Part shown: one piece after another, positions 10,598 to 43,010 of the stretch
Layout: each line of letters starts with the position of its first letter
Numbering within the stretch: the first letter of the stretch is position 1
Source of the DNA: Rhynchopus sp. YZ270_cl-10
Taxonomy: Eukaryota
Direction: 5' to 3'
DNA: 64,000 bases
Assembly (NCBI GenBank): GCA_964035575.1
Contig: OZ037840.1
Coordinates: 1,054,001 to 1,118,000, forward strand
Translations under genes and position numbers: made by a program
The notes under the pieces: model-generated
Told to the model about the DNA's origin: nothing
Databases searched by the model: none
What the model saw: the letters and a program-made list of their open reading frames with translations, nothing else

Positions 10598-11417
10598 TTT
10601 TTCAACTTACCTTCCTTCACCCCCCTGTAAGGGCAACCGTAGGTGAAGTAAGGTATAGTATTGAAATCGATGTGGGGGGGGAGTAAAGGGTCAATTTTAC
10701 AAAACCAGATTTTGAGGAAAATTTTAGCCGAAAATGGGCCCCACGTATAAGGAACCGGGCTCATATTTCTCAAAATTTAAGTGGTCAAAAAATTATCCAA
10801 TTTTCGAGATTGACCCCACCACTGCACGGGCGGATCCCAAAAATGCAAATAAGGACCCTTTTTAATTTGTTCTCTTGAAATGTATAATTTCATGTTTTCG
10901 CGAAAAAAATAACAACTGATCCCTACAAGGGTTGAAGGAAGGTGGTTGAAAATAACAATAACAACAAGAACAACTAATTGCTAAGAAAAAACGGGTGTGA
11001 TGTGGAAAACTCCGCGCGATTTTCGAAACCACCGTAGCATCCTGGCGATTTGGTGGAGGTGCTGATGCGCCTGGTGTGATCGATGTGTTGTAGTCTGTGC
11101 ATTCTGTGTTCCTTCCGCACTGCTCCAACGACGACGACAATGTGGGGAGCCTGTGGACAACTACGAGCTGGAACACGCCGAGCCTGCCGAGCCGACGTCC
11201 AACAACGCTCTCGAGCAGATGGTGCTGGATGAAGAGGACAGCCCCCCTTCTTGAACGTTTCAGATGCTGGCGTCCCAGTGGGTCTGGCAGCGTACGAAGA
11301 GCGTTAGCATACCTACAGAAGAGCAGAATGCTGGGCGTGTTGTAGATTATTTCTACAGGATGGAGTTCCACATCACACCCCGTTTTTTTCCGATAGCAAT
11401 TACTTGTTTTAGGCTCG
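10598..11417 (-). mobile_element. ~0.8-kb non-coding element with two adjacent inverted-repeat pairs (copy 1)
   Basis: Reverse-complement copy at about 58752-59557, where it interrupts a site that is empty at about 35170. Confidence 0.75.
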
Positions 11418-12696: not shown

Positions 12697-12960
12697 ATCC
12701 CTTTTTGTGTACTTCTTATTACAAAAAGGCAACATATTCACTTGAGAAGAGTTGCACTCACGAGAGAAAAGAAAGCTTCTTGCATCTACTTTCCTTGTTT
12801 TTCGATCCTTGCCACCTCCCCTCTCCTTCGCTCCACACCAGCATCACAGATACACCACACACAAAAGTAAATACAGAACGAAGCAACAAACACTCTACGC
12901 CACTCGGTGAACTTTGCCAACGCTGTTTATATATCTCGATCTTCCTTTGGCGTCTGAACC

Positions 12961-16825: not shown

Positions 16826-17088
16826 ATCCCTTTTTGTGTACTTCTTTTTACAAAAAGGCAACATATTCACTTGAGAAGAGTTGCACTCACGAGAGAAAAG
16901 AAAGCTTCTTGCATCTACTTTCCTTGTTTTTCGATCCTTGCCACCTCCCCTCTCCTTCGCTCCACACCAGCATCACAGATACACCACACACAAAAGTAAA
17001 TACAGAACAAGCAACAAACACTCTACGCCACTCGGTGGACTTTGCCAACGCTGTTTATATATCTCGATCTTCCTTTGGCGTCTGAACC

Positions 17089-19563
17089 ATGCCGGGGGAT
17101 GCAGTGACCGTACTTCCACCACGGAAGGGCGTGTCGTTCCGTCCACCCATTCTGTGTGTGTTTGCTGTTGCAACGCTGGTGTCGACATGTGCGTCGATGG
17201 GGGGTGGTCTGGTGATGTACTTCGAGAGTCTTGCATCGCTTGAGGCGACTGTGGAGACAACAAGCAAGAGCGAGGTGGAGGGACTCGAGAACACACTCAA
17301 GACACTTCTTGTCCTCACGACGTACACAGCAGACTCTGTGCGTGCCTTCCACTACAACAACGAAGTGGTCTCGAGCCACGACCCACGGGTCGTCTCAAAC
17401 CAGACACGTGCCTTCAGCTTCAGCAACACAAAATCTATGCATCTTGGTGGTGCTGGGTACGTCCTTGTTCCGTACGACATCGCCGATGGTTCGGGGGTGT
17501 ACAGCCTTGTGTGGAACGAGCCGCTCAGGGAGAAGGGGAAATTTTACTACATGCACGGGGAACATCACAAGTACCTGAACCACACCGAGGGGCTTGAGTA
17601 CTTTCCTGTGAACCACTCTGCTGACCCGCCAGTGCCAACACGGATGATGGTTCACACGAACCTTCTGGATGAGGGAACAGGTGAGGTGGACGAGTGGGTG
17701 TACGACTGGGATGGTGTGAACTACTTAACAGACATGTTACCACACGACTACGACCCACGTGACGGGGTTCCTCCACCAGGTTGGGATGCAGGTCTGGCCC
17801 AGGCTGTGGGTCACAAGTGGCGTCCACCACGTGCCTGGAGGTCTGTCGATGGTTCTGTGTACACATACTCTGGGTACGACTCGGTGCACGTGCCACCCCC
17901 AGCACCACACCCGTGGAGCAAGTACAGAGCAGTGCTGATTGTCGGTCTGCACATGTTCCTTCCGTGGCAGGTGGACCTGGACGACTACAAAGCACGCAAC
18001 GCTGAGACGACAGTTGCTTTGGTGGACGCAAAGCTGCGCATCGTCTTTGCATCCACGACAGGACGGTCCATGATCGACAGGTGCATGACCACGAGGAACA
18101 GTTTCTCTGTGACAAGCCCGCTGTCCTGTGCGACACGGGTGGACGAGATACCGTCCCTGAAGAAGGCGTTCGACGACTTGGTGAACGAAGATGTGTACGA
18201 AGGGACGTTCCGGACGATGACACTTGACGGTGAGGAACACTTTGTGCGTCGGAGTGCAACCTTCCACCAGGACCTGTTCCTGTTGTGGTACCGCCCGAAG
18301 TCGACTGTGCAGGGGAAGGTGCAGGAGGCGCTGGTTGTGCTGATCATCTTCACAGCTCTGGTGTTTGTGTTTGACCTGCTGGTGTCGACGCTCGAAGTTG
18401 TCTTCATTGCGCAGCCGATGCGACAGCTCTCTGCAGCCATCCAGAATGTCAGCAACTTTGAAACGGAATCTGCCACTGCTGCGATCTCACGTTACGACAA
18501 CGCACATGTCGTGATCAAGGAGATCAACTCGCTCATGGTGGGGATGCTCTTCACCATCCAACGCCTGGAGGAGTTCCGCACCTTTATGCCGCAGTCTGTG
18601 GTCCCAGGCCAGCAGGACGAGGCAGAGGAGTCGGCTGGTCAGTCTGTCACTTCCTTGTCGGATGGGAGCTCTGCAGTGTCGCGCATGTCATCAGTGTCGC
18701 AGACCGTAACGGCCACCGCACCAGCAACGGTGAACACACCTGCAACTGTACTTGGCCTGCACCTGACAAGCAAGGATGTGGGGTTGCTGTACGTGAACGC
18801 ACTCGGGTGGGACACACGCCAAGACAGCGAGGGTGTGCTGCGTGCGAGCAACGCGCTTGCTGCATACGTGCTGGGCTGTGTCGCACAGCACTCAGGTGTG
18901 CTGGACAACTTCTCGGGGGACCGCTACCTCATTGGGTGGAACACTGCACGGCGTACGTGCAGCCCTGCCACAGCAGCATGCAACACAGCACTGCGCATGT
19001 CTGCAGGACAGGGTGGTGTGTGTGCGTTCCGTCTTTCCTGCGCTATCGCATTCGGCCCTGCGAAGGTGGGGAACGTGGGCACAGCACAGCTGAGGCGCTT
19101 CTCTGTGATCACACCTTTGATTCCGTGGCTGATGACGATGGAGGCATACGCGAAGACCTGCAATGTACCACGTGTCACCGATGATGCGACGTCCCGCCAC
19201 TTGGAACGGTCTATTTTATGCCGTGTGTTTGATGCTGTTGTGCGTGAACGTCCGAGCAAGGTGGTGCCACTGCTGGAGGTCGTCCGGAAGGAAGAGTTTA
19301 CACCTCAGGAGTGGATGTACGAGCTGACAGAGTTGGACGCGAAGAACGGCGACAGCAAGGCTGCGAACAGCATTGTACACTGCATCCTCAAGCGCGACTG
19401 GGAGGAGGCAGCCAAGCAGTACGACATGCTCACAGACCAGAACGACCTTGCGCACATCTGGGCAGATGCACTGAGGAGGAGACGGTTCGATCCCATGCGC
19501 CTGTCCTTCTCCCGTTGCAGGGATACAACTCGGTGCGAAAACACGAATTCTGACTGTACTTAG
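17089..19563 (+). CDS. Receptor-type cyclase-like protein, paralogue 2
   Basis: 824 aa, near-identical to paralogue 1. Shares 5' flank and N-terminus with paralogue 1, and C-terminus and 3' flank with paralogue 3. Confidence 0.85.
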   Translation: MPGDAVTVLPPRKGVSFRPPILCVFAVATLVSTCASMGGGLVMYFESLASLEATVETTSKSEVEGLENTLKTLLVLTTYTADSVRAFHYNNEVVSSHDPRVVSNQTRAFSFSNTKSMHLGGAGYVLVPYDIADGSGVYSLVWNEPLREKGKFYYMHGEHHKYLNHTEGLEYFPVNHSADPPVPTRMMVHTNLLDEGTGEVDEWVYDWDGVNYLTDMLPHDYDPRDGVPPPGWDAGLAQAVGHKWRPPRAWRSVDGSVYTYSGYDSVHVPPPAPHPWSKYRAVLIVGLHMFLPWQVDLDDYKARNAETTVALVDAKLRIVFASTTGRSMIDRCMTTRNSFSVTSPLSCATRVDEIPSLKKAFDDLVNEDVYEGTFRTMTLDGEEHFVRRSATFHQDLFLLWYRPKSTVQGKVQEALVVLIIFTALVFVFDLLVSTLEVVFIAQPMRQLSAAIQNVSNFETESATAAISRYDNAHVVIKEINSLMVGMLFTIQRLEEFRTFMPQSVVPGQQDEAEESAGQSVTSLSDGSSAVSRMSSVSQTVTATAPATVNTPATVLGLHLTSKDVGLLYVNALGWDTRQDSEGVLRASNALAAYVLGCVAQHSGVLDNFSGDRYLIGWNTARRTCSPATAACNTALRMSAGQGGVCAFRLSCAIAFGPAKVGNVGTAQLRRFSVITPLIPWLMTMEAYAKTCNVPRVTDDATSRHLERSILCRVFDAVVRERPSKVVPLLEVVRKEEFTPQEWMYELTELDAKNGDSKAANSIVHCILKRDWEEAAKQYDMLTDQNDLAHIWADALRRRRFDPMRLSFSRCRDTTRCENTNSDCT

Positions 19564-19928: not shown

Positions 19929-20723
19929 CAGGGTCCTAGGTATAGGGAACGGAAAAGGTGCGGCACCTTTTCCGTTAAATTCGGATTTTTTTTTTTTTTT
20001 TTGGGGGGGATTTTTTTTTTTTGGGTCCCCCCAAAGAAAAAAATTCCAGTAACGGGGGTCCCTCCGACACTCAGCTCACAACAGAATTTATTGCTGCCCA
20101 AAATCTCAATTTCCCATACAAAAATGCTCGCATTCAGAAGGAAAGCGCTTGCGAAACCCGAGGGGGCTCAAGGGCACACCGTGGGAGAACTCGACTCATT
20201 TGGTCAAACGCCGAAGGAAAAGGAAGCATGCAGCGAAGCGAAAGCAAAAAAGTAGCGTACCGTGCGCCTGCGGCGCAAGATTGCAACACCCTTTCACATG
20301 ACATAGTTTGTCAGCAAAAATGTGCTATTTTAAGTGATTTTTTTTTGAAATATTGCGTACCGTGGCTTCGCCAGAAACTTTCGTTTTAGCAAAATACGGA
20401 AGTAAAATTTACGCAAACTGACGATAATTACCAACGAAAGTGCTATTCTATGCCAACATTTTAGAAATGTTGCGTACCGTGGCTTCGCCAGGAACCTTTG
20501 GGTGCCATGAGCGTCGTTTCTTTTTGTAAATGTACTGAGGTTATTGATAAGCGCACGATTCTTTCGTGCCACACATTCTTGGATGGGTAACATCATTGTC
20601 GTTGGAGTAATCATTTTTTGAGGCTGTTGTGGGGTGGTAAATATTCCGCGCGCAGCGCGGAATTTTTTTTTTTTTGCAGCACCTTTTCCGTTTCCGTTTT
20701 TTTTATTTGGACCTAGAACCCTG
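19929..20723. mobile_element. hAT-like MITE
   Basis: TIR CAGGGTCCTAGGT / ACCTAGAACCCTG, flanked by (g)gtgaaat on both sides. Empty site at about 38247. Confidence 0.8.
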
Positions 20724-20895
20724 GTGAAATATGCCATTTTTATTAATTGAGTGCCCAATTAGAACGATTTTTTATATATTTTCCTGTGACTTAATTAGGG
20801 TGCCCAAGTCTTAGCGCAGTCCCCCCACCTGAGTGAAGCAAGGAGGATAAAACGTTATGAAGGGACCATGTTTTGAGCACTGAAAATAATATATA

Positions 20896-21962
20896 TTATT
20901 GACGTGTAATATTTTTGCCTTTATTTCACGCACAGCCCCAAAAAACCCCGAGGAGTGGTTTTTTTCCCCGAGGGCGCAGCCCGAGGGGAAAAAATACCAC
21001 TCCGAGGGGTTTTGGGGCTGTAAGTGAAATTAAGGCAAAATATTACACCAACAATACATTTTTTTATTGCACAACGGGGCACTTTAATTTCACAACCCGG
21101 GGGTCTGCTAAACGCTTAGTTCTCAAGGCTTACGTTCATCGTATCAACTTCCCTTTGGTGTTGGGGTTATCTTCATTCAAATTTTTCTCTGTCACCTCAT
21201 GAAATGAAGGAGGAAATAGAAACGAAGCATTTTGAACACACTTTGCGGTTCTAGAGACGAACCGCGCTGCAGAGCCACTCCTCACCAAACAGGTCGAGGT
21301 GTGTGCGTTTCACCACAACCTCTCCCATGGGTTTTATCGTGTGATGAGTGTTAAGTTTCTATTTTTTTCGAAATATCTTTATCTCCTGTATCACAACCTT
21401 GCAGAGTTGCTGATGTCCGACCTAAACACCATTGAGGCAGATGGAGTGGCCACTCCACAGGCAGCACTGTTCCCGTAGGTGGGCACCCCACCCCCACCAG
21501 CCACATCCGCTTCCAGCTAAGGTGAAACAGGTGAAAAAATCCCTCAGATGCTCAAAATACCCAAATTTTGCGTTTTTTTTGCATTTTTCGGTATCCCAAG
21601 ACCCCACCCAGGAGTCGAAATTTTCCGGGGAAAAAAAATTTTTTTTCCCGATTTTTCGGATTTTTGCTAAGGCGTTGGCCCATACAAACCGATTTTTTGT
21701 ACAGAAAATGACCGGGGAATAAATATGTGATGCTCAAAACATCAAAATTCTTGCTTTATTTGCATTTTTGGGTCCATCTGAGCCCAAAAAAAATTTTTTT
21801 TTTCGGCTGAAAATTTTGTCTTTGCGAAAAGAAGAAAAAAAATCGAGCAGTGAAATAAAGAGTGAAATAAAGAAATAAAGCCTTTTTTATTTCACTGCCG
21901 TTTTTATTTTTCTACAGGAATTTGTTAGGGGAGTGAAATTAAAGTGCCCCGACGTGCAATAA
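20896..21962 (+). mobile_element. Non-autonomous derivative of the tyrosine-recombinase (YR) element (unit 1)
   Basis: Shares the terminal hairpin (20904-21048), the inner IR pair (21064-21093 / 21933-21962) and about 430 bp of the right end with unit 2. It has no recombinase ORF. Confidence 0.85.
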
Positions 21963-22383
21963 TATATATTATTGACGTGTAATATTTTTGCCTTTATTTC
22001 ACGCACAGCCCCAAAAAACCCCGAGGAGTGGTTTTTTTCCCCGAGGGCGCAGCCCGAGGGGAAAAAATACCACTCCGAGGGGTTTTTTGGGGCTGTAAGT
22101 GAAATAAAGGCAAAATATTACACCAACAATACATTTTTTTATTGCACAACGGGGCACTTTAATTTCACAACCCGGCGGTCCGACCAAATTATAGTATAAA
22201 ACAACAGGGGGATGGACAGGGGGATTCTTTTTAGTGTAAGGCTCTGCTTTCATGGTGCTTCCAAATTCACACACGCCTGGGGGTTAGGTGCGCAGGTTTT
22301 ACAAAGGGTGTAAACAACTTTGGTACAAAAAAAATGTGATATGATCCCAAGTTTCACCGTGTTTGGAAAAAGTTACGTTGAAG

Positions 22384-23559
22384 TTACTTGGGTATCCCTT
22401 GCTTGGTCAGTTGAGTGAGTATGTCACCAAAGTTAAGGTTGATGACAACTGATCCCTGAGCTGTCTGCGGGGCCTGTGGTGGTGCTGCTGGAGGCTGGGT
22501 CAGTCGATCCGCTACGGTTTTTTTCGTAGCATCCGAGGATTTAGCGTACGTCTGGATCATGCTTTCGCTTGACCAGCCGCAGTGATCCTTAAGGACACTT
22601 GAGGGGGTTTCTTTGTCGTACAAGGACTGTGCAGCCGATTTGCGTGCGCAATGACCGGTGTACAATTCGGGGTTCTTCAGGTTCAGCCATCTTGCACAGA
22701 CAGAGGGGATTTGGCGAAGAGTGTTCACGCCCACCACGCATTCCGAGAATTTCACAGGCCCGTCCTCGTCTTGCTCACCCCGGATCCACAGACACTCATT
22801 CCTGGCCAGCTCAATCAAATCATGTTCGTCGTTTATATAATTGAGGTACAGCAGGAAAGTGGCAGCGGCCCAGTTCGTGAGGAAAAAGGTGAAGCTGACA
22901 GGATTTTTCGACTTGAGTCGAATGATGGTAACCTTTATGTTGCCTTCATCACTCGCATCAACATCCTTTAGTGTCAGTGCCTTAGCCTCAGCTGCGCGAA
23001 GTGCTCCTGAGTATGATGTGGCGAGGTAGGCCCTCCTAACGAGGTGATAACCGTTGAGTGGCCCATTCGTGCAGTAATCCTCTAGCTGCTGATCCGTCAG
23101 AGTCTTACTCTGCTTCGGTGGAGCGCATGGGGCGTTGCTAATCAGCATAGCTACTCTGGGATACGTTGTTTTGCACTTGATGTTGTATTTTGCCAAAATG
23201 AAACCAGACAGTCTGCAATAGTAGCTGGAGACAGAGGACCGTTTATTTTTTTTGACGTCCAGGAGATATGTTACGTACCGCACCAACTCCGCCTCCTTCG
23301 GGGCTGTCTTCCTCTGCTTTCCCCATTTGATGAATGATGCGAATTTGTCCCATTCCTCTTCATACTGCAATTTCGACTTTTTCGGCAACAATTTCTCGGC
23401 ATAGGTCTTAGCCATCTCATCCGATTCCTTTGCTGAGACTCTAGCCCTCTTCGTCGGTGGCGCTGACTCACTTGAACTATCCTCGCTTGAGCTATCCTCG
23501 CTTGAGCTATCTTGTTCTTTTTTTGTCTTTTTCGGGGCAGGGCGCTTCTTGGAACCCAT
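22384..23559 (-). CDS. Tyrosine recombinase (Crypton-like), 391 aa
   Basis: Catalytic set readable: R (GALRAAE), K (RLKSK), HxxR (YTGHCARKS), W (HCGW), Y (IQTYA). Basic NLS-like N-terminus (KKRPAPKK, PPTKRARV). Confidence 0.88.
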   Translation of the reverse strand: MGSKKRPAPKKTKKEQDSSSEDSSSEDSSSESAPPTKRARVSAKESDEMAKTYAEKLLPKKSKLQYEEEWDKFASFIKWGKQRKTAPKEAELVRYVTYLLDVKKNKRSSVSSYYCRLSGFILAKYNIKCKTTYPRVAMLISNAPCAPPKQSKTLTDQQLEDYCTNGPLNGYHLVRRAYLATSYSGALRAAEAKALTLKDVDASDEGNIKVTIIRLKSKNPVSFTFFLTNWAAATFLLYLNYINDEHDLIELARNECLWIRGEQDEDGPVKFSECVVGVNTLRQIPSVCARWLNLKNPELYTGHCARKSAAQSLYDKETPSSVLKDHCGWSSESMIQTYAKSSDATKKTVADRLTQPPAAPPQAPQTAQGSVVINLNFGDILTQLTKQGIPK

Positions 23560-23847
23560 TTTTTGTGTTTGTTTTTGGTTTTTGTGGATTTTTTGATGTT
23601 TTTTCGCTGTGTGAGGGTGTGAAAATTGGTTTCACAAATGTGAAAATAGGTGAAAAAATCCCCCAAATGGTTAAAATGCCCAAATTTTGCGTTTTTTTTT
23701 GCATTTTTCGGTACCCCAAGATCCCACCCAGGAGTCAAAATTTTCCGGGGGAAAAAAAATTTTTTTTCCCGATTTTTCGGATTTTTGCTAAGGCGTTGGC
23801 CCATACAAACCGGTTTTTTGTACAGAAAATGACCGGGAAATAAATAT

Positions 23848-26835
23848 TTGTGCAAACACCTGGACAAGGACTACCGCTGGGACGCGGCAGGGTGGGATCA
23901 CTCGGCCACCAGGTTCAACGAGTTGGTGGACGATGACGCACGTGTGGACCCGGGCGAGCAGCCCCAGCAGACCCTTAGGCAACGTGATCTCTCTTTGTCG
24001 ATCATCCTCCGACAAGCGGCTGCGGTGCGGGAGGCAGGCGATGTGCAGGACCTTGCTCGGCTGAACTCGCTCCAGCTGCCCATGGCTGGGGCGTGGGTAA
24101 CGGCTCTGCCCCTCCCGGAGAATGTCATCGATCCGGAGGCGTTTCGCGCTGTGGTCCGTCTTCGGTTGGGTCTGGTGATGTACAGAGACGATGTCCGCTG
24201 CGGACAATGCGCAGTGAGCATGGACCAGTATGGGATTCATGCCCTCAACTGCAAGCATGGGGGTTGCACGATTCGCAGGCACGACCGGCTCCGGGATCTG
24301 GTGGGCACGCTAGGTTCGAAGGCAGGTCTCGCTCCGGCCTTGGAACCCAAGCACATCGTCCTCGGGGGTACCAAGCCAGCAGACATCTTCTTCCCCATCG
24401 GCATAGGTGACGGTAGAGCCAGGGCGGTAGACTGTGTGGTTGCGAACCCCCTGGCCTCTTCGCATGTACAGGGGGCGGCGCGAGCGGTGGGGCACGCAGC
24501 GGTCAAGCATCAGTCCTGGAAGCGCGATAAGCACGGCAAAGCTTGCAGGACAGCACACATTTCCTTCTCCGCTTTTGCGGCCGAGGTCTTTGGGGGGCTG
24601 GGGCCGGAAGCAGCCACGCTGTGGCGGCACCTGAACAAGATTGCCGCGGAGCGTGCGGACGGGGATAAGGTCTTGGCCTCGGCCAAATGGAATGAGCGTC
24701 TGGCCGTGTGTGTACAGCGGGAGGTGGGTGCCACGCTGTTGAAGCGGGGGGCCTTGTGTTTCGGCCTTGGGGGTGATCGTGATGCAGTGCCGGCTGATAC
24801 TGTCGAACGTACCCCAGACTACTACGTCACACCTGACGACGCCCCAGACGATCGCTTCCCTACATACGTGGACGACCACCTGTACCGGCTCGCTGAGCAA
24901 GACTGTGAGATTGTTGAGGAACCAACCCCTGATCCACGAAGTGCGGCTGATGTTGATGAGGCTACTGCGGCGATGGAGAGGTGGTTACAGCGGCAGGCGC
25001 GCAAGAACCCTGTTCATCAGTCTTCCGTCGTCGTGGAAGTAGCTCCCTGCGAGGACCCAGCTGCGGCCTATGAGAAGCTGCATGAGGGTGACTCCCCTCC
25101 TGCCCTAGCGGTGCAGCTGTCCGCCGTCGGATGCTCCACTCCCGCGAACTTCCGCTACACCGTGGGTGACTGCTGTTTCGACGCTATGGCACACTTGAGC
25201 GGGAAGAACGCGGGGTCCCTGAGGCAGGTTGCGGTTGCACAGGTAGTCCAAGACGCGGACCTGGCGGCACGGGCTGAACCGAATGTCGCCGTGTGGTCGC
25301 GGCGGATGCTCATCGCTGGGTGTGATCGATCGGATACCTGGGCTGACACTGTGACCGTTGCCGGCCTTGCGCGCGCTCTGAACTCGCTGGTGGTGGTGTT
25401 TGTGGGTGGTCATAAGCCTTCGCTCTTCACCCCCTCGAGTGCGACGAATTACCAGAATGTGTTTGCGCTGGCTCACGACGGCCGCACGGTGGGCCACTTC
25501 ACGCCGGTCACCATCCCGGAGAAACTGAGGCAGTACTTCCTGATGCAGCCTCCGACGCCGCGCCTGCCGTCGCTCACTTGTGTGTCCCGCGTGGCAATGC
25601 TGGACTACCCTCAGGACGGAACGAGAGAGGATTTCGGGAAATGTGAGGTGTGCGGGTCTGCTGTCCTCGGCAGTGAGCAGCACTGGCAGTGCGGGGAGTG
25701 CGTGGCTTGGGCGTGCCGGCAGTGTCGTCCCCTCAGCTGCTCTTCCTGCCCACGGGCTCCAGCGGTTGTCAGCTTACCGAGTTCCTCAGGTGTCACTGCG
25801 CGCACACATCCAGCAGCGGACCCCAAGAGTAATGACTTGTTGCAGGAGCAGCGGGATAAACGCGTGGCCACGAGTGGGGCTACCATCAAGAAGAACAGGG
25901 ACCAGCTTCGTGCCCGGTTGCGTAAGGCTCCGACGGATGCCATGGATGTAGAGAGTGGCTATTCAAACACCACCCCAGCCCTCTCTACCTCCTCCGCGCC
26001 CCAGGTCGTGCAGACCCCTGTCCAACCTGGCACTTCGTCGCAGGCGCACTCTGCATCGGACGAGTCTCAGCAGCATCAGACAAATACGGAGAGTGGCTAT
26101 TACAACACCCACGCAGCCCTCCCCGTACCCGCGTCTGATGTGGCTGTTCCCTCATCCACCAGCACGAGAGAGCAGCCTCACGCTGTTCCGCAGGTCGCTA
26201 CGTCGCAGGCGCAGCCATCAAGGACCCATACGGAGAGTGGCTATTCAAACACCACCCCAGCCCTCCCCGTATACACGTCCTCTGAGGCAGCTCACTCTCA
26301 CGCTGACACGAGTGAGCAGCCACACGTCGCCTCGCAAGACAGTGCGTACTCCGCGGACCTCCTTGGCGGGTCCCAGCACGCAGTTCCCTTGCCTGGCGCA
26401 ACCTCGGTCCCCAGCACAGACACACCATCGGAGAGTGGCTACCAATCCGCACCACCAGCCCTCCCGAACCCTGTGCCGGTATGGAATGACATAGCGCCCT
26501 GCCCCGGGTTTGACTTGCCTATTCCAGAGACCGCTGATGAGTGGGAGGGGTTGTTCTCCCACTACCACTCATTTCAGCTCCCAAGGCGGGGACTCTATGA
26601 CGGCGGCGGAGGCTTTCGAGTACTGTGGGCGGTGGAGGACTGCAGTGAGGCCGATGTTGAGTCAGGAGGAGCTGAGGAAGGCGTCGACGCTGTGCAATCG
26701 CCTGAGGAGTCTTGTGCAGACGCGCCTTCGCTCCGCCGCATAGACTTTAGAGACTTCTTTTTACTTTTTCTCCCCTCTCCCCCCCCTTCTTCCCTTTCTC
26801 CTTCTTTTTTGGCTATTTTTATTTCGTTCACATAG
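23848..26835 (+). pseudogene. C-terminal part of the retrotransposon ORF: CCHC finger, RLE endonuclease, OTU-like protease, Cys-rich finger, ESGY repeats; RT domain missing
   Basis: AGAWVTALP, FRAVVRLRLG, C..C...D.YG.HALNC, RRHD, EP, KPADI, AVD, K..KH, AAEVFGGLG. Then TVGDCCFDA...LRQ...WAD...GHF, and CEVC..CGEC..C..C. No ATG at the start. Confidence 0.85.
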
Positions 26836-27117
26836 CCTAGATTCGGACCTGTTTTCAGGCCGACCGTGTACAGCCGGGTAGAGCTAGACAACGCCAACAG
26901 CTGTGGCCCAAGGAGGTCCTCAGTGTTGTCTGCCAATCCCCTTAACCCAACAAAAGACTACAAAATAAAAACAATCTAGACAAAGCCGCCCCCATCCCCG
27001 TCCAGGCAAAATAAAAAAAGTAAAAGAATGCCCTTCCTCAGTCCGGAAGTATCACCTCAACCGGTTACCTGCCGTAAAAGAGAGAGAGGTTACAGAACTA
27101 TTGTAAGAAATTAAAAA
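23848..27117 (+). mobile_element. 5'-truncated CRE-clade-like (RLE) non-LTR retrotransposon
   Basis: TSD AAATAAATAT (23838-23847 / 27118-27127) and an A-rich tail. The ORF begins at the insertion edge. Unit 1 shows the uninterrupted site. Confidence 0.88.
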
Positions 27118-27215
27118 AAATAAATATGTGATGCTCAAAACATCAAAATTCTTGCTTTATTTGCATTTTTGGGTCCATCTGAGCCCAAAAAAAATTTTTT
27201 TTTTCGGCTGAAAAT

Positions 27216-28897
27216 ACCACTCACTTCAGCTCCCAAGGTGGGTACGGACTGACGGCAGCGGAGGCTTTCGAGTACTGTGGGCGGTGGAGGTCTGCAGTGA
27301 AGCCGATGTTGAGGGAGCTGAAGAAGTCGGCGGAGCTGTGCAATCGCCTGCGGAGTCTTGTGCAGACGCGTCGTCGGACCGCCTCATAGACACTAGAGTC
27401 ACCATTTTTCCACTTTTCACTTTTCGTTTCCCTCCCTCCCCCCCCCCCTAGGGGATACGACTCCAGCCATTTTGGCTGGGACCAAACGCACGGAAAATTC
27501 ATTTGGCATTATCTGGCCATCTCCAAGGCAACTGCGGGTGAAAAACACCCTCAGAGTGGGTCACAGGGGGCCTGTGGGTCGAAAAACGACCCAGAAGCCA
27601 CCCCAGAATACAAAAAAATGGAAAAAAATAGTGAAAAAACGGCTTTTTTCACGTTTTGGCCACTTTGGGCAAAATAGCGATTTTTCGAGAAAAAAATCAA
27701 AAACCGGGATATTTTTTGACATCACAAAGCCTCCTTTGGCACAAATATACCCCAAAAGTGGCCTGTGAGTCCATTCCAACCTGTTTTGGACATATTTGAC
27801 ACTTTTGGAAGTGTTTTTTTGGTGTTTTTAGGTCAAAAAAATGCCCAAGACGTCCCCAAGACATCCCCAAGACACTTTGCACACCCCCTGTTACGGTCAT
27901 ATTTTTTTCGTTTTTTTGCCTGAAACCCCCAAAATACCCCTCCCGGACCCCACATAGTCCCGAATATCCATCACACACCCACTCAGAGTGAGTAGAAGCA
28001 CCCCAAAAAAAATATTTTTTAAAGCCCTAAAATTGTGCTTCAGTTTCGGCAGCATCCATGTTGAAGTTGAAGGGCTTTAAAAAATATTTTTTTTGGGGTG
28101 CTTCTACTCACTCTGAGTGGGTGTGTGATGGATATTCGGGACTATGTGGGGTCCGGGAGGGGTATTTTGGGGGTTTCAGGCAAAAAAACGAAAAAAATAT
28201 GACCGTAACAGGGGGTGTGCAAAGTGTCTTGGGGATGTCTTGGGGACGTCTTGGGCATTTTTTTGACCTAAAAACACCAAAAAAAACACTTCCAAAAGTG
28301 TCAAATATGTCCAAAACAGGTTGGAATGGACTCACAGGCCACTTTTGGGGTATATTTGTGCCAAAGGAGGCTTTGTGATGTCAAAAAATATCCCGGTTTT
28401 TGATTTTTTTCTCGAAAAATCGCTATTTTGCCCAAAGTGGCCAAAACGTGAAAAAAGCCGTTTTTTCACTATTTTTTTCCATTTTTTTGTATTCTGGGGT
28501 GGCTTCTGGGTCGTTTTTCGACCCACAGGCCCCCTGTGACCCACTCTGAGGGTGTTTTTCACCCGCAGTTGCCTTGGAGATGACCAGATAATGCCAAATG
28601 AATTTTCCGTGCGCAAAAAATGGCTGGAGTCGTACCCCCTACTCCCCCCCCCCCTTTTATAGACTAGAGTGTACAGCCAGGCCTGGCTAGACGGCGTTAA
28701 CAGCTTTGAGCCAAGGAGGTTCATCGTGTCGTCATGCACGCAGCTGAGGCCGCCCCGTACCCCCTCCAGGCAAATAAAAAAGTAAAAGAATGCCCTTCCT
28801 CAGTCCGGAAGTATCACCTCAACCGGTCACCTGCCGTAAAAGAGAGAGAGGTTACAGATATTTAAAAAAAACGTTAAAAAAAAAAAAAAAAAAAAAA
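27216..28897 (+). mobile_element. Second, shorter and diverged 3' fragment of the same retrotransposon family
   Basis: Begins with sequence homologous to about 26564. Shares the 3' end agaatgcccttcctcagtccggaagtatcacctcaaccgg. Poly(A) at 28876-28897; AAAAT duplicated. Confidence 0.85.
27449..28641. mobile_element. ~1.2-kb foldback element (arms about 580 bp, spacer about 42 bp)
   Basis: TAGGGGATACGACTCCAGCCATTT / AAATGGCTGGAGTCGTACCCCCTA. Arms are near-perfect reverse complements around 28029-28070. CT(C)11 on both flanks. Confidence 0.9.
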
Positions 28898-29063
28898 TTT
28901 TGTCTTTGCGAAAAAAAAAAAAAAAATCGAGCAGTGAAATAAAGAGTGAAATAAAGAGTGAAATAAAGAAATAAAGCCTTTTTTATTTCACTGCCGTTTT
29001 TATTTTTCTACAGGAATTTGTTAGGGGAGTGAAATTAAAGTGCCCCGACGTGCAATAAATGTA

Positions 29064-29746
29064 GAATTTTGATGTTTTGAGCATCACATATTTATTTCCC
29101 GGTCATTTTCTGTACAAAAAACCGGTTTGTATGGGCCAGCGCCTTAGCAAAAATCCGAAAAATCGGGGAAAAAAATTTTTTTTTCCCCGGAAAATTTCGA
29201 CTCCTGGGTGGGGTCTTGGGGTACCGAAAAATGCAAAAAAACGCAAAATTTGGGTATTTTGACCATCTGAGGGATTTTTTCACCTGTTTCACCTTAGATG
29301 GAAGCGGATGCGGCTGGTGGGGGTGGGGTGTGCCCACCTACGGGAACAGCGCTGCCTGTGGAGTGGCCACTCCATTGGCCTCAATGGTGTTTAGGTCGGA
29401 CATCAGCAACTCTGCAAGGTTGTGATACAGAAGATAAAGATATTTCGAAAAAGAGAAAAATTTGAATGAAGATAACCCCAACACCAAAGGGAAGTTGATA
29501 CGATGAACGTAAGCCTTGAGAACTAAGCGTTTAGCAGACCCCCGGGTTGTGAAATAAAAGTGCCCCGTTGTGCAATAAAAAAATGTATTGTTGGTGTAAT
29601 ATTTTGCCTTAATTTCACTTACAGCCCCAAAACCCCTCGGAGTGGTATTTTTTCCCCTCGGGCTGCGCCCTCGGGGAAAAAAACCACTCCTCGGGGTTTT
29701 TTGGGGCTGTGCGTGAAATAAAGGCAAAAATATTACACGTCAATAA
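29064..29746 (-). mobile_element. Inverted, right-truncated copy of the non-autonomous YR derivative (unit 3)
   Basis: Reverse complement of about 20896-21750 with a ~175-bp indel. Ends CACGTCAATAA followed by TATATA. Confidence 0.85.
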
Positions 29747-30134
29747 TATATATGTTTGTCCGCTCCGTATGTGATGTTATTTGAAAAGTGAGAAGTCGTT
29801 GTGGAAAATAAATGCTGGTGAAAACAGACTGTTATGCGTTTGAAGCCGCGAAGACCAAGAAACACAATTTAGTCCTCTACATTTCTAATTTAAAAAATGT
29901 AGTTTTGCTCATTTACCAAGCCCAAGCCAAAAAAAAAGAAAAAGAAAAAAAAGAAAAAGAAAAAACGGGTTCACGACGAATGCCGTCTATACCTTCCGTA
30001 GTACAAAGTCTTCGGCCAACATTGAGCACAGGCCCTGCTAGCCCCAAGTGGGTTCTTAGGAGATTGTCGACACAACAACAACAACAACAAAAAAACGAAA
30101 TATAAACGCAGATCTCTATACCAGTAGGTGTAAC

Positions 30135-30969
30135 CAGGGCACTAGCTAGGTGCTTTTTTGCGGTTTCAAAACCGCAAAAACCCGGTTTTGCGGTTTGGTG
30201 AAAAAAAAAAAAAAAAACGGAAAATCTCGGGGCAGAAGAAAAAAAAAATGTGGGGGGTTTTGGGCACTGTTGGGGCCCCCTCGCCCGACCCCCAGATGAC
30301 TGGCATGACAGCACCTTAATTTTTTCTGCTCGCTGCGTTCACGGGAGTACACCCCAAAAAAATTTCCGCTCGCTTCGCGAGCGGAGTTAACCCATATTTT
30401 TTTTTGCCTGCGGGGCCATTTTCCTTTTTTGTTGAGTGACTCTGGTGTAAAACCGGCATCTTTACACCGTACCCTAATTTTTTTTGCCTGCGGCGCCATT
30501 TATTATTTTACAATGTCTTCGGGAATCCCCTTGCAATTTGGACAGTTGCATTTTGCAACCGAAAATGCAATCGATTCAGGTAGAGGGGTGGTCCACGATA
30601 GGGGAGATTAAGTCAGAGCATAGTGAGCCGGCGTGCCACTGCGGACATGGAGGAGTATGTGATAGAATGGTCGACAGCAAACAGGAGACTGGGGGGAGTA
30701 TGTGCGAACGTCGGAAGCTGTGCAGACCATGCGGCAACACATGCTCACGACAGAAGCATTCTGATACATGCAATGAAGTTGGTAGGAGATTCCACCAGGG
30801 GTCAGTCGGGTTTAGCCCCGTAAAAAATGCCCTGTAAATAACCCCTTCCCAAAATCTCCCCGTCCCTCATTCGTGTGTTTTCCCTTCTAGTTTGTCGCCG
30901 CGCGAATTTTTTTTTTGAAACCGCAAAACCGCAAAAAAACGGGAAAAAAAAAGTCTAGCTAGTGCCCTG
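30135..30969. mobile_element. hAT-like MITE
   Basis: TIR CAGGGCACTAGCTAG, 8-bp TSD GGTGTAAC, empty site at about 38926. Confidence 0.9.
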
Positions 30970-32154
30970 GGTGTAACGTATAGGTTGTAGAAAAAAAAGT
31001 AGTATAAAGTAATAACGGTATCCACGACACGAGAGAGAGGTGAGGAACGGCTGTGTGGAGCTCACACGAAAAGAAAAGAAGAAGAAAAACGAAACCGAGG
31101 TGTCTACGCGATATCAATTGTTTAAAAAAAGCAAAAGCAAAACCACATTGTAACCTAGTGTAGTCACAGTGAGTACCTTGATGAGGTTTTACTTTCTTCA
31201 CTTTGTGCTGTGGTAGCTCCACGAACAGGAACAAAGCCAGATATACCGTGACATCTGGCTTCAACTGGATATCTGTGGTGCGTTTCTCCTTTTGATAGTG
31301 GCTTGCAGATGTTACGGTGCGTGTGTGTGTGTTTGTGTTATCAAGCATTGACGAATAGAAATGGAAAACGATGGATGGTGCGTGCCCGCAAGTGCTTGGG
31401 TTTTTCTTCACTAACACATATCCCACACATATTCTGCAGTGAAAACTCACAAGCCTTTTGCGGTGCGATAAAACGAAAAAGTGTTTTCTTTTTTCATTTA
31501 ACTGTCATATCCTGAAGTCGTTTTCTATTTTGATTTTTTCTTTGTCTTTTGTCTTTTTTGTACTTTCTCTCCTTTTGAGTGTGGCTTGTAGATGTTACGG
31601 TGTGTGTGTGTGCGTTTTTTTTTTTTTGTTTTGTTTTTTGTCTTTGTACTTTCTCTTCTTTGATGTGAAAGCTTTCTATTATTTTTTTTTGTGTGTTGTG
31701 TCAACCTCGAATGGATGCAGGACTGTTGGGGTCCACCCACGGTGCACCGGTCAAGCACCGAGGTACACTGTCACGAGAGCTGCTTTTGTCGACCAGATTT
31801 TTCCTGAAATTTGGGCAGGGTTTGGTGGTATTACCCCCCACACAAACTCCACAAAATTTTTAGGCAAAATTACATACAATGCAACGAGGCCGACTGCGCC
31901 TGAAAATAGGCATCAAAAAATTCAAAAAATGTAAAATCTATGTGAGGCGTGGCTGAGGCGTTAATCCTCATAATGGTTCTGAACTGTCCAAAAATCAAGC
32001 CTGGGGGTACCACACACGTCTTTACCCCTACTTATAATCACGTCGCAAGCCACGCCTGAGTATTATTAGTCCCCCTCAGCCACGCCTGTATCAGGCCTTA
32101 GTGAGGATTGTTCAGCCTCGTTGCATTGTCTGAAATTAGTTGGTTTGTAAGTTA

Positions 32155-32690: not shown

Positions 32691-35487
32691 TAAGTCAATT
32701 TTTTCTGTTTTTTTTTTCTCTCTTTTTTTTTTTGCTTTTTTTTTTTTTTTTGCGTTGATGTGGAAGAGGAGGGTTGATAACAAAGCATTCACAGATAACC
32801 CCGCAAGAGGAAAAAGAAAAAATAATATTCAGGGTGAGTGGTGTGTCTCTTTGTGCGGTTGTTTTTTTCCTATCTCTTTCTTTTCTTTGATTTGAAAGGG
32901 GGCATGTGTTGACCCTCTCACATACTTTCAATTCTGTGAATTGAAAGTATATGAATCTAATTTTCTTTGATTGGAAAGTGTCTGAAGCTATTTTCAAACT
33001 AATTTTACATCGCATTGTTGTTAAAATCAACGTTGAAAAAACCCCACGAAGCAGAAACACCCACCCGCAAATTATTTTTTTTGTGACTCTGTGATTTGTG
33101 TTACGGTCAAACCTCCCCGCCACCAGTTGGGACTATTCTTTGCTGTTCTTGCTCTATGTTTTTTTTCTCTTTTTTTTTCTTTTCTGCTGAACTCTCATTG
33201 AAAACTGGCAACACTTTTTACCTGCAAGTGTTGTCTATAACCAAAACAAAATTTTCTTTTCTGCTGTACCCTACTTTTTATTTGCAAAAAAAAACAAAAG
33301 ATTTTTTATTCAAAAAAAAAAGAGGAGACGACGCTGGACAAAAAAAAAACCCTATCTTTCGCTTTGAAAATATTAATCATTTCTTCTTTCTTTCCCCACT
33401 TTTTTTGATTATTTTTTTTTTTTCTCTCAACGGTATTTACAAAAAGGAATCATTTTTATTTTTGTGAATTCGTCCCTTTCCTCCTCCTGTCCCCCCTCCC
33501 AAACTTGCTCTCTTTGCCCCCTTCGCTCTTCTTCACACTTTTTGTCTTCGTGAAGGGGCATTGGGGAGTACCCTGTACAACTCACAGAAGCTTTTAACGT
33601 AGGTGTGGTCTGTGTGGCTGCGTTATATACTTCCCTCGCGTCGCAATGTGAAGCGGGCAAAATACAATATAATGCCACCAGAATTGTCACACTTTCCCCG
33701 CCCCCCCAGCACTGTGGTTTTGTACTAGGGGGCTAGCATCTACTGGTTCCTCTTTGAGTGCGCTCATCGGATGTGGTGTCTGCAAAATAAATTGCCTTTT
33801 TCTCTCTCTTTCCTTCTCTTTCCGTGCTTATTGCTATACACGTTGGATTGTGTAATGTCATTACGTGACGAGTGACGAGAGCAAAAACGGGGTCAAAATA
33901 CGCGTCACTGCCGTCACTACGTCGGCATGCCGACCCCGTAACGACGACGTCCTGACGCCCGTAATGTCCGTACGATTCCATCGTGTACGCTAACAATCAA
34001 AGTATCTAAGCAGCGTTGGGTTTCAGGCTCATCTTACCAAAAAAACAAAACAAAACAAAAAAAAAAGTTGCTCTTAAGGGTTCAGGACGAACGACGTCTA
34101 TACCTTCCGTGGTACAAAAGGCTTCGGCCAACATTGATTTTTTTCTTTGGTTAACACAACCGTATTTGACAGAAATGCTCGATACCCTCATGAAATGTCG
34201 CGCCTCTGCGTATCCCCTTCCCCGCTTCCCCGTAAGCGAACAACAAACAACGTTTTTTTATTATCAGATGTAAACCACGAAATGGATTGTAGGACCTGCA
34301 TGGTTGGGTGTCCACCCCCTGGTACAGCCGGTCATACCAAGGTACACTGTTCACGAGAAGGCTTTTGTATTTCAACTCTACCTTTTCCCCCCCTCCCCGT
34401 TAGTCTTTTTTTAGCTATAAGCAAAGAGTAACGAGTCTCTCGCGCATTTTGGTGAAGTGCACGGCTTCGAGGCTATCGTTCCAGATTTTCTTTACCACCC
34501 CCGTGTTAAACCCTGATAAGATACAACACTTGTCCGTGCTAAGCGTGGTCCTTCGCTTTCTCCCCATCTCTGTGTCTCGGTCAGTCTCTAAAAAAAATTT
34601 CGCGTTTTTTGAGAACCACTTTCCGACAATCAGAGACCCGCGAGAGAGTGTTTGCGTCTGCCATCTCTGTGAGTACAGCCCGGCTATATAAGGGCCTCTC
34701 GGGCACAGGACAACACACAAATTAAAGAAAAGCTGAAAAAAGATGAACGCACCATGCAAACATCAAAAGAAATGTTTTGTCAGATGGCCCCTAAGCGATC
34801 CAGTGCTCAGTGAACAGCGGGAAGAATCAAGAACGGGAATGGAAAAGGCTGTTTGCCTTTGCTGCACCCTGTAAGAGATTTCTTAGATCCCATTCTCCCC
34901 AAGGTGCTTGGTATTTAACCCCCTTCAGTGGCCACTTTCATTTGTTCAATTTTTTGTTTGGCTTCACGAAGCGCAAATCATGACCATCGTTTCTTTTTTT
35001 GACAGACAAAAAAAAAGATCTTGTGAATTGAAAAGGGCTGGCGTATATTGCCATTGTTGCTATTCTTATTCCTTCCCCCAAAAAACCCCCCAAGAACGCA
35101 TCTTTGACTTACTTCTGTGTGCGAGCAAATTTGTTCCATTTTATATGATTGGAACGCAAAAGCAGAGAAAAAAACAAAATTATTTTAGTACTAAACCCAT
35201 CTTGTCACGGGTTGTTGTACGTATCGCAGTAGTGTGCATCGCTTCAGGGAAAGTGGATTCTTGCATGTGTCCATTCCAAAAAATAATAATTGTCAAGCAA
35301 ACAAAAAAAGCAAAACTAAATAATACAAAAGGTGAAGAAAGAAGTATTGCAGTGATTTACAGAAAAAAATAGCCTCACATATTTGTCCACCTCTGTCCCC
35401 ACGTTCACTCTCTTCTCGTTTTTCGTCTGTCCAAGCAACCACCACACCACAGATACCCCACCCCGATCCCGTGGGAACAGTACAAAG

Positions 35488-37959: not shown

Positions 37960-39716
37960 GCCGAAAAATAGACCTTTACAAAATTACCGAAATCTGAATC
38001 ATTGTTCACCCTAAAATTAGTCTACCTTTTCAGGATTTTTCGGTTTTTATTGCACAACTGTGGCAACACAAACCGAGGAAACTACACTACTCCAACAATT
38101 TATCAAAAAAAACAAACAAAGAAGCGTCTTGAAAAAGAAGAATGCTGTACCACACCACCTGCGTGATGCCTGATACACCAAATCTGTTGAAAAGAATGTG
38201 AAAACGTGAAGAACTGAACACAACCTACTGCCCCCTAAAAACAAGGGGTGAAATATGCCATTTTTATTAATTGAGTGCCCAATTAGAACGATTTTTTTAT
38301 ATTTTCCTGTGACTTAATTATGGTGCCCAAGTCTTAGCGCAGTCCCCCCACCTGAGTGAAGCAAGGAGGATAAAACGTTATGAAGGGACCATGTTTTGAG
38401 CACTGAAAATAAATGTATTGTTTGTCCGCTCCGCATGTGATGTTATTTGAAAAGTGAGAAGTCGTTGTGGAAAATAAATGCTGGTGAAAACAGACTGTTA
38501 TGCGCTTGAAGCCGCGAAGACCAAGAAACACAATTTAGTCCTCTACATTTTTAATTTAAAAAATGTAGTTTTGCTCATTTACCAAGCCCAAGCCAAAAAA
38601 AAAGAAAAAGAAGAAAAAGAAAAAGAAAAAAGGGTTCACGACGAATGCCGTCTATACCTTCTGTGGTACAAAGGCTTCGGCCAACATTGAGTACAGGCCC
38701 TGCTAGCCCCAAGTGGGTTCTTAGGAGATTGTCGACACAACAACAAAAAAAAAAACGAAATTGGTGCTCCTGAAATAAAAACTACCAAGTACGCAACAAC
38801 TACGCAATATAGGGTATTCCTGTATTATTTTTTTTTCGTGCACAAAGTGTGCAACAAGTACGCAAAATGGGGTTATCAGGAGCACCAGAAATATATTATA
38901 ATAAACGCAGATCTCTATACCAGTAGGTGTAACGTATAGGTTGTAGAAAAAAAAGTAGTATGTAAAAGTAAGAACGGTATCCACGACACGAGAGAGAGGT
39001 GAGGAACGGCTGCGTGGAGCTCACACGAAAAGAAAAGAAGAAGAAAAAAAAACGAAACCGAGGTGTCTACACGATATCAATTGTTTAACCCTTTGGGACC
39101 GAAGGGTGGCTGAATTAAACACCCAAAATTGGGGTCCCCACAGAGGAAGGTGGGTAATATGGTCCCACATGCATAAAAACCAAAGTCGAGGGGCGGAATT
39201 GAAAGATTTTTCATCAAATAAATCCAAAGAAGCAAAAAATTTTCAGTTTTGGCATCCTGGAAATTTATTAGATACTGGAGAGCCTGGGTCACCTGAAAAG
39301 GTGGTAAAGGGGGGTGTGACAACAATTAAAAGTGCATTTTTTGGGTCAATTTTTTCACATTTTCCTAAATTTCGGCCCGGAAACGCATTTCCGGGCATTT
39401 TTGGGGCGGGGTATGGGTGAATTTTCCATATTTTGAGGCCTCAGGCAACATGTCTAAAAATGGCACTTTTACTAGGGAAAAGTGGAAAAAAGTAGGGTAT
39501 GTTAGGGGGGAAAGTGAGTAAATTGACTTCAGATTGGCCATTTTTGAAAACTTTTAGCGTCGTTAAATGCGCGAAACTGCCGGAATGCAAAGCAATGCGA
39601 GATCAGTTCCAGAAAAAAAAATATATCAGTCCTATTCGTGGTCCTTTACCCCCCCCTTTGGGTCGGTGAACCGGAAATTTTGGAAATAGGGGGGTAAAAT
39701 AAGGGGGGGGGGTAAA

Positions 39717-42351: not shown

Positions 42352-42911
42352 GGGGTAAAGGAGGGGGTAAGGGGGGGGGGGGGGGGTAAAGGACCATGTT
42401 ATGGGTTTGGTCACGTTTTTGGGTGGGAAGGGGGGACATTTTCCAACACCGTGGGGTGAAATTTTGCACAACACAGTGTGACGACACATGATCTAATGAC
42501 AAATATATCGTCTGAAAAAAATTCCTCACCTCCTTGCGACATCGCAAGTAGTCATGAATCATGCAAATCCACAGCATCCACATCATCTTTCTGCCCGTGC
42601 CTGTACCATGACTGGTCAGGGATGACGAGGGATCACGATGTTGCCTCAGATTCCGTGAGGTGTCCCAAACGTATCGCCCACGCAGCACAAACGTACCCAC
42701 TTGCACCCATCTACCTGCACACGCGATGCAAAACAGGAGTGAAGGATTATTTGCACTTTACCCCTTTCCTCATTTCGAGCTTGTCTCCAGCTTCATATCA
42801 GACGAGTCCTACAGTCTACGGATGTGTACGACCCGCTGAACACATCAGCCCCTCCCAGCAAACCATCAAACAAAACAAGTGTGCGCTGCATTATGAAATT
42901 ATTACCCTATA

Positions 42912-43010
42912 ATTACACGCCGGGTGGTGTTTTGTCACGAGGGACCTAAACCCCCTCGCTTCGCTCGTGGGTTTAGGTCACTCGTGACAAAACACCACCT
43001 GGCGTGTTGT
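42912..43010. other. ~100-bp imperfect hairpin
   Basis: cacgccgggtggtgttttgtcacgagggacctaaacc-ccctcgcttcgctcgtg-ggtttaggtcactcgtgacaaaacaccacctggcgtg. Confidence 0.8.

Follow-up and report, generated by a model that had tools for sequence, protein, structure and literature searches.

Tyrosine recombinase elements and the present locus

Cryptons have been described as transposons with direct repeats of 4-6 bp and no terminal inverted repeats (TIRs), the CryptonI and CryptonA groups being reported without terminal repeats (PMC3212892); animal Cryptons have also been described without direct repeats. The words "hairpin" and "palindrom" are absent from the main text of Kojima & Jurka 2011 (PMC3212892), and a 2026 review treats Crypton transposition as experimentally undemonstrated and assumes a double-stranded circle (PMC13565253). 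Active Cryptons gain copies despite clean excision (PMC9977147), and Starships use short matches with their targets (PMC10104507; bioRxiv 10.64898/2026.09.21.753150). Here we describe an element encoding a tyrosine recombinase (YR) in a stretch of 64,000 nucleotides from the eukaryote Rhynchopus sp. YZ270_cl-10 (assembly GCA_964035575.1, contig OZ037840.1, forward-strand positions 1,054,001 to 1,118,000), hereafter the window, to whose positions all coordinates refer. Its sequence makes it most likely a Crypton-type transposon, with the insect-type group CryptonI as the most likely placement, while its junctions and terminal hairpins point to a probable transposition route through a folded single-stranded circle.

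Comparable routes are known from bacteria. In the CTXφ attP(+) site and in IMEX, the folding of two inverted site pairs creates a single site whose overlap region is unpaired; one strand exchange takes place, replication resolves it and tandem copies arise (PMC3442271). Integron attC sites, the substrates of IntI, are also folded single strands, in which unpaired bases govern the choice of strand and resolution is replicative (PMC4792948). SE elements (SE-6945) and Tn916 are YR elements that carry six non-homologous bases into the target; in the SE elements, which have four coding sequences, six base pairs of donor flank (attL) are moved to a new attR in each round (PMC9345347).

Insertion without target duplication

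The filled site holds 8.9 kb of inserted DNA, composed of three copies of one element: A and B, arranged head-to-tail, and C, which is inverted and truncated. Sequence comparison identifies an empty paralogous site at 38405..38427 (+), which reads GAAAATAA-ATGTAT-TGTTTGTCC. The left arm GAAAATAA recurs as host DNA at 20882..20889 (+), identical to 38405-38412, which places the insertion point after 20889, and the right arm TGTTTGTCC recurs at 29753..29761 (+). The hexamer ATGTAT between them is not duplicated and remains behind the far end: ATGTA, five of its six bases, stands directly behind copy B at 29059..29063 (+), a position with a chance probability of about 0.001. The retained bases read ATGTAG, and only five of the six survive because copy C is truncated there. 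Since the 100-base flanks differ from the paralogue at only one position to the left and two to the right of the filled site (20889/29753; 98-99% identity), the difference in the hexamer is not explained by six adjacent substitutions. Other insertions between the same pair of paralogues show ordinary target-site duplications (TSDs; TTAA or about 8 bp) and thus provide an internal control that the comparison is able to detect a TSD. Insertion without TSD and without core homology is supported at the sequence level. A reading of TATATA as a TSD combined with a diverged paralogue was ruled out by the identity of the flanks and the reappearance of ATGTA inside the locus; a homologous core shifted by one base (ATRTAT) was also ruled out, as it predicts junctions one base shorter than those seen.

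The hexamer TATATA, which we term the leader, is found unchanged at the hairpin end of all three copies: 20890..20895 (+) in A, 21963..21968 (+) in B and 29747-52 (-) in C. Its presence at both outer junctions is due only to the inversion of C. A and B entered after GAAAATAA, with the target ATGTA then following the far end of B, and C entered the same hexamer from the opposite strand, after GGACAAACA, six bases away, the minus-strand reading of the right arm being the left arm of this insertion. A six-base stagger between strands agrees with the way in which YRs cleave at the two edges of a core. The leader and the target core differ at 6/6 positions in both insertion events, and the arm bases shared by the target and the element end number five in A/B versus one in C (ACA), which places the crossover within one base of the arm edge. 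AATAA is found at both A/B junctions, where an annotator would score it as a direct repeat of 5 bp, because the left arm of the target resembles the far end of the element. Judged from these junctions, insertion is one-sided and not a two-way exchange, with the leader at the hairpin end and the target core always at the far end. An unvarying leader, with the target core on one side alone, means that of the two heteroduplex products that could form it is always the same one that is recovered. Self-targeting of element ends is supported in the window. The truncation of copy C is one base off the junction rule (CTACAT versus ATACAT), so that a normal YR event was rejected as its origin; later deletion of a tail-to-tail palindrome appears more likely.

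The letters quoted in the initial annotation of this locus, namely the three TATATA junctions, the displaced ATGTA, the empty site and the head-to-tail junction at 21952-21978, were all confirmed by a direct check of the window. Its claims of a 6-bp junction without TSD, of an arm-6-arm geometry, of integration without core homology and of the element's own ends as targets are borne out.

Architecture of the element

Each copy begins with the leader, followed by an imperfect palindrome of 162-164 bp, a 6-nt spacer (ATTTTT) and a 30-bp inner TIR; this last is an inverted match, at 28/30 positions, to the far TIR, which ends in GTGCAATAA flush with the target. Copy A (20890..21962, +; 1073 bp) is non-autonomous, having the ends common to B and C and no YR remnant. 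Its terminal hairpin module spans 162 bp (20896..21057, +) with a C-GCA-G apex near 20975-79, and its spacer (21058..21063, +), which opposes the leader in the predicted folded junction, is followed by the inner TIR (21064..21093, +) and, at the other end, the far TIR (21933..21962, +). The YR-coding copy B (21963..29058, +) has its terminal hairpin module, with two tandem G·A loops and a C-GCA-G apex, at 21969..22132, its spacer at 22133-38, its inner TIR at 22139..22168 and its far TIR at 29029..29058 (all +). Together, the far TIR of A and the leader, hairpin, spacer and inner TIR of B form the head-to-tail junction (21933..22168, +), which is predicted to fold as a single long hairpin. Copy C (29064..29752, -) is a relative of A whose far end is missing; it retains the hairpin (29585-29746), spacer (29579-84) and inner TIR (29549-78), all on the minus strand. 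What the initial annotation took as the left end was correctly located; it is the outer foot of this hairpin, which had been overlooked together with the spacer and inner TIR behind it. A single-stranded substrate is suggested by both the hairpin and the inner TIR. A chance insertion of a miniature inverted-repeat transposable element as the source of the hairpin was rejected in the light of the relatives and of the folds of the joined ends.

Comparison with the uninterrupted copy A reveals two nested inserts in B, both resembling long interspersed nuclear elements (LINEs) and ending in poly-A tails: insert 1 at approximately 23848..27128 (+), with TSD AATAAATAT, and insert 2 at approximately 27216..28898 (+), with TSD AAAAT. 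On sequence grounds these are later insertions into B and not parts of the element, which measures about 2135 bp when they are subtracted. Insert 1 contains an open frame of 1000 amino acids (23833-26835, +) with no Pfam match, the N-terminal third of which looks like a zinc knuckle and restriction-like endonuclease of non-long-terminal-repeat elements, and a later part like an OTU protease; in the ESM Atlas it matches clusters without a name at 0.97, and zf-RVT, at 0.88, is the closest cluster that has one. The 1.2-kb palindrome of insert 2 (27449-28641) is 95.5% self-inverted, with mismatches that have no strand bias. A copy of the sub-terminal region of the element, 76-81% identical and without recognisable ends, lies at 52771-52997 and is perhaps an old relative.

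The recombinase and its affinities

The recombinase open reading frame (ORF) of 391 amino acids lies at 22384..23559 (-), and PF00589 is its sole Pfam match (1.9e-9). The catalytic residues R188, H303, R306 and Y338, as well as K216 and W329, fall in columns at least 90% conserved among 95 sequences. The predicted structure (pLDDT 88) best matches Cre (TM-score 0.74), followed by IntI4 (0.59) and Tn1549 Int (0.58), so that the tyrosine recombinase named in the initial annotation stands. A homologue search returned 198 representatives at E 1e-10, about 25-30% identical. The named relatives are insect proteins, a species name being found in 1/20 clusters looked up and for 4/12 matches in another search, and the top ESM Atlas cluster is assigned to Arthropoda. 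The query itself was the only match in a word-indexed protein search, the motif pattern had 0 matches in viral contigs, and a locus search with profile P0011 confirmed 0/97 candidates.

The YR is the only coding part of B outside the TSD-bounded inserts, one of which contains the nested ORF of this copy, as expected of a Crypton. The length of about 2.1 kb, the presence of PF00589 alone without a C-terminal domain, and the non-autonomous copies A and C are traits of CryptonI, itself a YR-only DNA transposon of about 1.5-2 kb that lacks a C-terminal domain and has non-autonomous derivatives (PMC3212892). It differs from the present element in that the latter has a fixed leader and a 30-bp TIR pair, one member of which is set back by about 170 bp from the end and masked by a hairpin, and needs no direct repeat. 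A TIR hidden in this manner would explain the reports of CryptonI and CryptonA as lacking terminal repeats. The domain scan of the window ORFs gave no match to DUF3504 of CryptonA at E up to 0.05, to GCR1_C of CryptonF or to the DUF3435 captain of Starships, whose cargo is also absent from this element of about 2 kb. No reverse transcriptase family was found in copy B, unlike DIRS, Ngaro, VIPER and TATE, which have reverse transcriptase and RNase H along with the YR.

Relatives in metagenomes

A motif pattern search yielded 38 metagenome loci, of which 38/38 matched the family profile and belong to the same YR family. Six loci, 99% identical, constitute family 1 and three constitute family 2; both share the build of the window element, with a hairpin that measures 136-140 bp and is followed by an inner TIR, while the far TIR directly abuts flanks that differ between copies, and the leader is fixed in 5/5 (family 1) and 2/2 (family 2) intact ends. 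In all these elements the YR ORF fills most of the 1.4-2.1 kb between the TIRs. The TIRs are thus present in the relatives as well as in the window (the 28/30 pair, one member of it sub-terminal), at variance with the described absence of TIRs from Cryptons. Across the family, flanks with a hairpin scoring >=60 were found at 19/38 loci versus 0/190 resampled flanks; the other 19/38 have no hairpin above this threshold, and in many of them the sequence stops about 300 bases or less from the gene. A matched TIR starts <=8 nt from the end of the hairpin in 8/13 distinct diverged modules.

Six copies in families 1 and 2 have two flanks. In these the suffix of the arm shared between target and element measures 0, 5, 3, 1, 0 and 2 bp, which leaves 2/6 without any direct repeat (L017 and L019, 0 bp; L038 has 1 bp). 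The direct repeats of 4-6 bp that serve as the crossover region of CryptonF/S are accordingly not a constant feature here (5 bp in A/B, 1 bp in C, 0 bp in L017 and L019). In the same copies the leader and the right flank differ at 2-7 of 7 positions. Over all sources, 12/12 cases have A or T as the first base behind the far TIR. Locus L001 has a head-to-tail junction that includes the leader and may represent a tandem or a circle.

Some palindromes in these loci are of separate note. The last 60 bases of L033 form a perfect 60-nt palindrome centred just past the far TIR, which could be an artefact of amplification, or else mark a junction of the tail-to-tail kind or a hairpin end that is covalently closed. 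Between L019 and L037, 97% identical, the centre of the hairpin is inverted, suggestive of either a flip/flop or an ambiguity of assembly. Near the far end L014, L024, L029, L030 and L004 carry short palindromic units, some of them stacked, which are possibly self-targeted mini-elements.

Copies in sequencing runs

Seven of nine listed sequencing runs contain part of the stretch, and five of them (X1-X5) were compared with the window. The high-depth contig of the hairpin end begins at 21960 or 21964 and is therefore unbranched through ATATA in 4/4 runs, while that of the far end stops in the same runs at 21962 or one non-T base further. In X1 the element-end contigs have a depth of about 2700 versus 62 for one flank contig, which suggests that the element is present in tens of copies, a rough figure since depth is not copy number. 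Left flanks match through TAA in 11/12 rows, a sample in which different runs repeat the same loci and which contains too few flanks that depart from the reference; the right flanks seen begin with AACAAT, TAACTA and one near-match to leader plus arm with three differences. In the target consensus AATAA-N6-T(T/G)TTG of the initial annotation the right arm is weak, and most other right flanks lack it. Low-depth contigs of X1-X4 over 21780-22200 have diverged ends and a different hairpin centre, and indicate related subfamilies in the same genomes.

Folding and strand bias of the terminal hairpins

The joined ends of the window (21933..22168) fold at -102.8 kcal/mol (z -20), with a 7x7 loop holding the leader and spacer; those of L001 reach -64.4 kcal/mol (z -15) as a long hairpin in which the leader again lies opposite the spacer. 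Both junctions thus fold in silico in the IMEX-like manner. As palindromes always score well, we took strand asymmetry as the informative test. Fourteen modules, among which two pairs are related, were oriented from flank to interior by the position of the gene and not by their fold; left out of the counts were L006 (a 58-nt palindrome away from the TIR), the perfect 3' palindrome of L033, and the redundant L001, L032, L036, L038 and L037 (the last with a flipped centre).

The flank-to-interior strand, compared with its complement, has 60 G·A versus 10 C·T mismatches, 28 G·T versus 13 A·C and 11 G·G versus 1 C·C. Tandem 5'-GA/GA loops number 17 versus 0 and occur in 11 modules versus 0 (p 0.001; 10 versus 0 with the related pair merged), and there are none in seven unrelated palindromes of the window. 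C-GNA-G apices number 7 versus 0, with four-base versions found twice on the same strand and once on the other. In total the flank-to-interior strand folds better in 13/14 modules. This bias holds for modules located 5' of the gene (sense) as well as 3' of it (antisense, as in the window), and hence does not reflect an mRNA structure. The interval 20700-30000 has 0 matches in Rfam. Tandem sheared G·A pairs are stable in DNA. Loops of the GCGNAGC type show an unusual stability in DNA that is reduced in RNA (PMC13037366).

A proposed route of transposition and its alternatives

We consider it probable that the element moves by way of a folded single-stranded circle, a single strand exchange and resolution by replication. 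The junctions are the observed products and are consistent with this; the circle and the single exchange we infer from them. One strand would be excised, joining the far TIR to the leader. The far TIR would then pair with the inner TIR and the arms of the hairpin with each other, so that the leader faces the spacer in a mismatched bubble with a YR-binding arm on each side. The YR would cut only the strand of the leader, together with the target after its TAA-like arm, and swap the two, whereupon replication of the junction would yield the order flank-leader-element-target core. With a T·T mismatch at the first position of the bubble, an A-initial target could pair with the spacer and a T-initial one with the leader. 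The route of CTXφ would be the simplest one that also makes use of the hairpin and inner TIR. We further lean, a little less firmly, towards the view that a widespread eukaryotic YR clade (in insects, protists, and gut and environmental eukaryotes) transposes by such one-strand peel-and-paste, with a CTXφ/attC-like fold around a mismatched bubble, a single transposon-encoded Cre-like recombinase, loose targets and at most one base of pairing.

Several findings weigh against this reading. Neither a circle, a single-stranded form nor the reaction itself was observed, and a true empty site is available for the window locus only. The two head-to-tail junctions do not establish the excision as a circle put forward in the initial annotation, as both may have arisen by tandem insertion; no contig among those listed bridges this junction (71 and 460 records were not shown), although contigs drop rare forms, so that their absence says nothing about circles. 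The leader has 7 nt in families 1 and 2 versus 6 nt in the window, and one X2 contig has G at its first base. L003 has TIRs but no hairpin, and L028 of family 1 lacks both the leader and the hairpin, foreign DNA standing flush at both TIRs (positions 2132-3532 of L028), a form which possibly arose through an adjacent deletion using the inner TIR. The bias in G·T/A·C is reversed in L025, the loop is flipped in L037 and L033, and the two strands of the window fold almost equally (-102.8 versus -101.3 kcal/mol). The rule of A or T behind the far TIR was noticed after the fact. Moreover, a double-stranded circle with one ordered exchange would also predict a fixed leader.

That last alternative supposes a double-stranded circle whose exchange is ordered and biased to one strand, or whose repair is directed; the hairpin would then be a cruciform, an origin of replication, an accessory array that binds protein or a self-targeted mini-element. 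It appears to us rather improbable. It explains the fixed leader and the missing TSD equally well, the self-targeting seen in the window suits it, and the lack of a hairpin in L028 and L003 speaks in its favour; bacterial SE elements have a strand bias with no end hairpin described in the available text (PMC9345347), and mini-hairpins occur at single-strand priming sites (PMC13037366). It fits less well with a hairpin that adjoins a matched TIR in 8/13 diverged modules and that aligns an inner TIR with the far TIR over a spacer of 6 nt, and with a mismatch bias confined to one strand. We hold still less likely the published model of Cryptons and Starships (PMC3212892, PMC9977147, PMC10104507), namely crossover within a short homology (AATAA or TAA) shared by end and target, with TATATA as merely the first six bases of the element. 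The AATAA at both A/B junctions and the TAA match of 11/12 left flanks agree with it, but these flank rows are biased towards reference-like ones, and the model, already strained by zero-homology copies, meets a single shared base in copy C and L038 and none in L017 and L019. Furthermore, the dyad axis lies on the leader and not on AATAA, and the target hexamer of A/B was also entered by copy C, from the opposite strand and at a distance of 6 nt.

The coupling sequences of Tn916 vary, at both ends and between copies. An excision and integration of this type, with both strands exchanged and heteroduplex coupling sequences, had been invoked in the initial annotation and is very improbable here: the 6/6 differences between leader and target core in both window events, the X2 contig with a different first base and the foreign bases at both TIRs of L028 are in its favour, but the leader is invariant in 3/3 window copies, in 5/5 and 2/2 copies of the related families (7/7 ends) and in the unbranched high-depth contigs of 4/4 runs, the carried bases being fixed and at one end. 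HUH transposons have single-stranded hairpin ends and often no TSD, and on these two features a Helitron- or Replitron-like HUH nuclease might be thought to move the elements, with the YR as a passenger or resolvase. This too we regard as highly unlikely, as the 1.4-2.1 kb between the TIRs is largely YR ORF, the arm-6/7-arm geometry suits a YR, and no HUH family was found in the 12 window ORFs scanned.

Comparison with described systems

The single-stranded route proposed for the element resembles that of CTXφ (PMC3442271), which is a bacterial phage employing host XerCD at dif, whereas here the element's own YR would act on many unrelated, loose targets by a mechanism deduced from its products. 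IntI (PMC4792948) carries the I2 insertion; the recombinase model is closest to Cre and not to IntI4, a comparison of overall fold only. In contrast to the donor-flank bases of SE elements (PMC9345347), the leader does not change and stays with the hairpin end, and there is one coding sequence and not four. CryptonF-1_cRei and CryptonF/S share the missing TSD, clean empty sites, a rising copy number and rearrangements at target-like sites, but require a 5-6-bp match between terminus and target and have the GCR1_C domain not found here (PMC9977147). Starships have a direct repeat and an asymmetric TIR (PMC12257634), and a circle has been detected. We read the printed 40-mer of the Hephaestus junction as a 12-8-12 dyad cut at the edge of arm and spacer, with a mostly non-matching fixed spacer (bioRxiv 10.64898/2026.09.21.753150); this reduces the novelty of the fixed-core geometry that the initial annotation had claimed. 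Starships differ in their DUF3435 captain, giant cargo and TTAC microhomology, and neither an end hairpin nor a single-strand model appears in the text compared. Neither was such a hairpin or single-strand model found for Cryptons in the searchable literature, to which subscription journals and Repbase Reports do not belong.

If true, the proposed mechanism would be the first integron-like one in eukaryotes and would explain the gain of copies by Cryptons. The window contributes a true empty site and an insertion pair on both strands, to which the relatives add the zero-homology copies and the strand test over 14 diverged modules. The locus supplies the exact substrates, i.e. leader, bubble, arms, empty site and both insertion strands, and its prediction differs sharply from that of the standing model, hence it is testable with oligonucleotides and one protein of 391 amino acids. 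As a tool, too, a recombinase of small size would deserve interest if it can insert DNA with neither double-strand breaks nor homology to the target.

Other features of the window

Further insertions absent from the paralogue include those at 19929-20723 and 30127-30970, with CAGGG termini and TSDs of about 8 bp, and that at 39088-43666, with a TTAA TSD and an ORF with a hAT dimerisation domain (40019-42034). Four ORF copies of 825-910 amino acids, 94-98% identical and with no Pfam match, are located at 12958-15450, 17086-19563, 35356-37959 and 59733-62468. An ORF of 1208 amino acids at 2523-6149 (+) has a C-terminal PTEN-like phosphatase and C2 domain. The window also contains a perfect tandem array with a period of 54 bp (54821-55242) and an 800-bp repeat (58751-59557 and 10598-11410), which lies in an A-rich site relative to 35172-35176 and has no clear TIRs.

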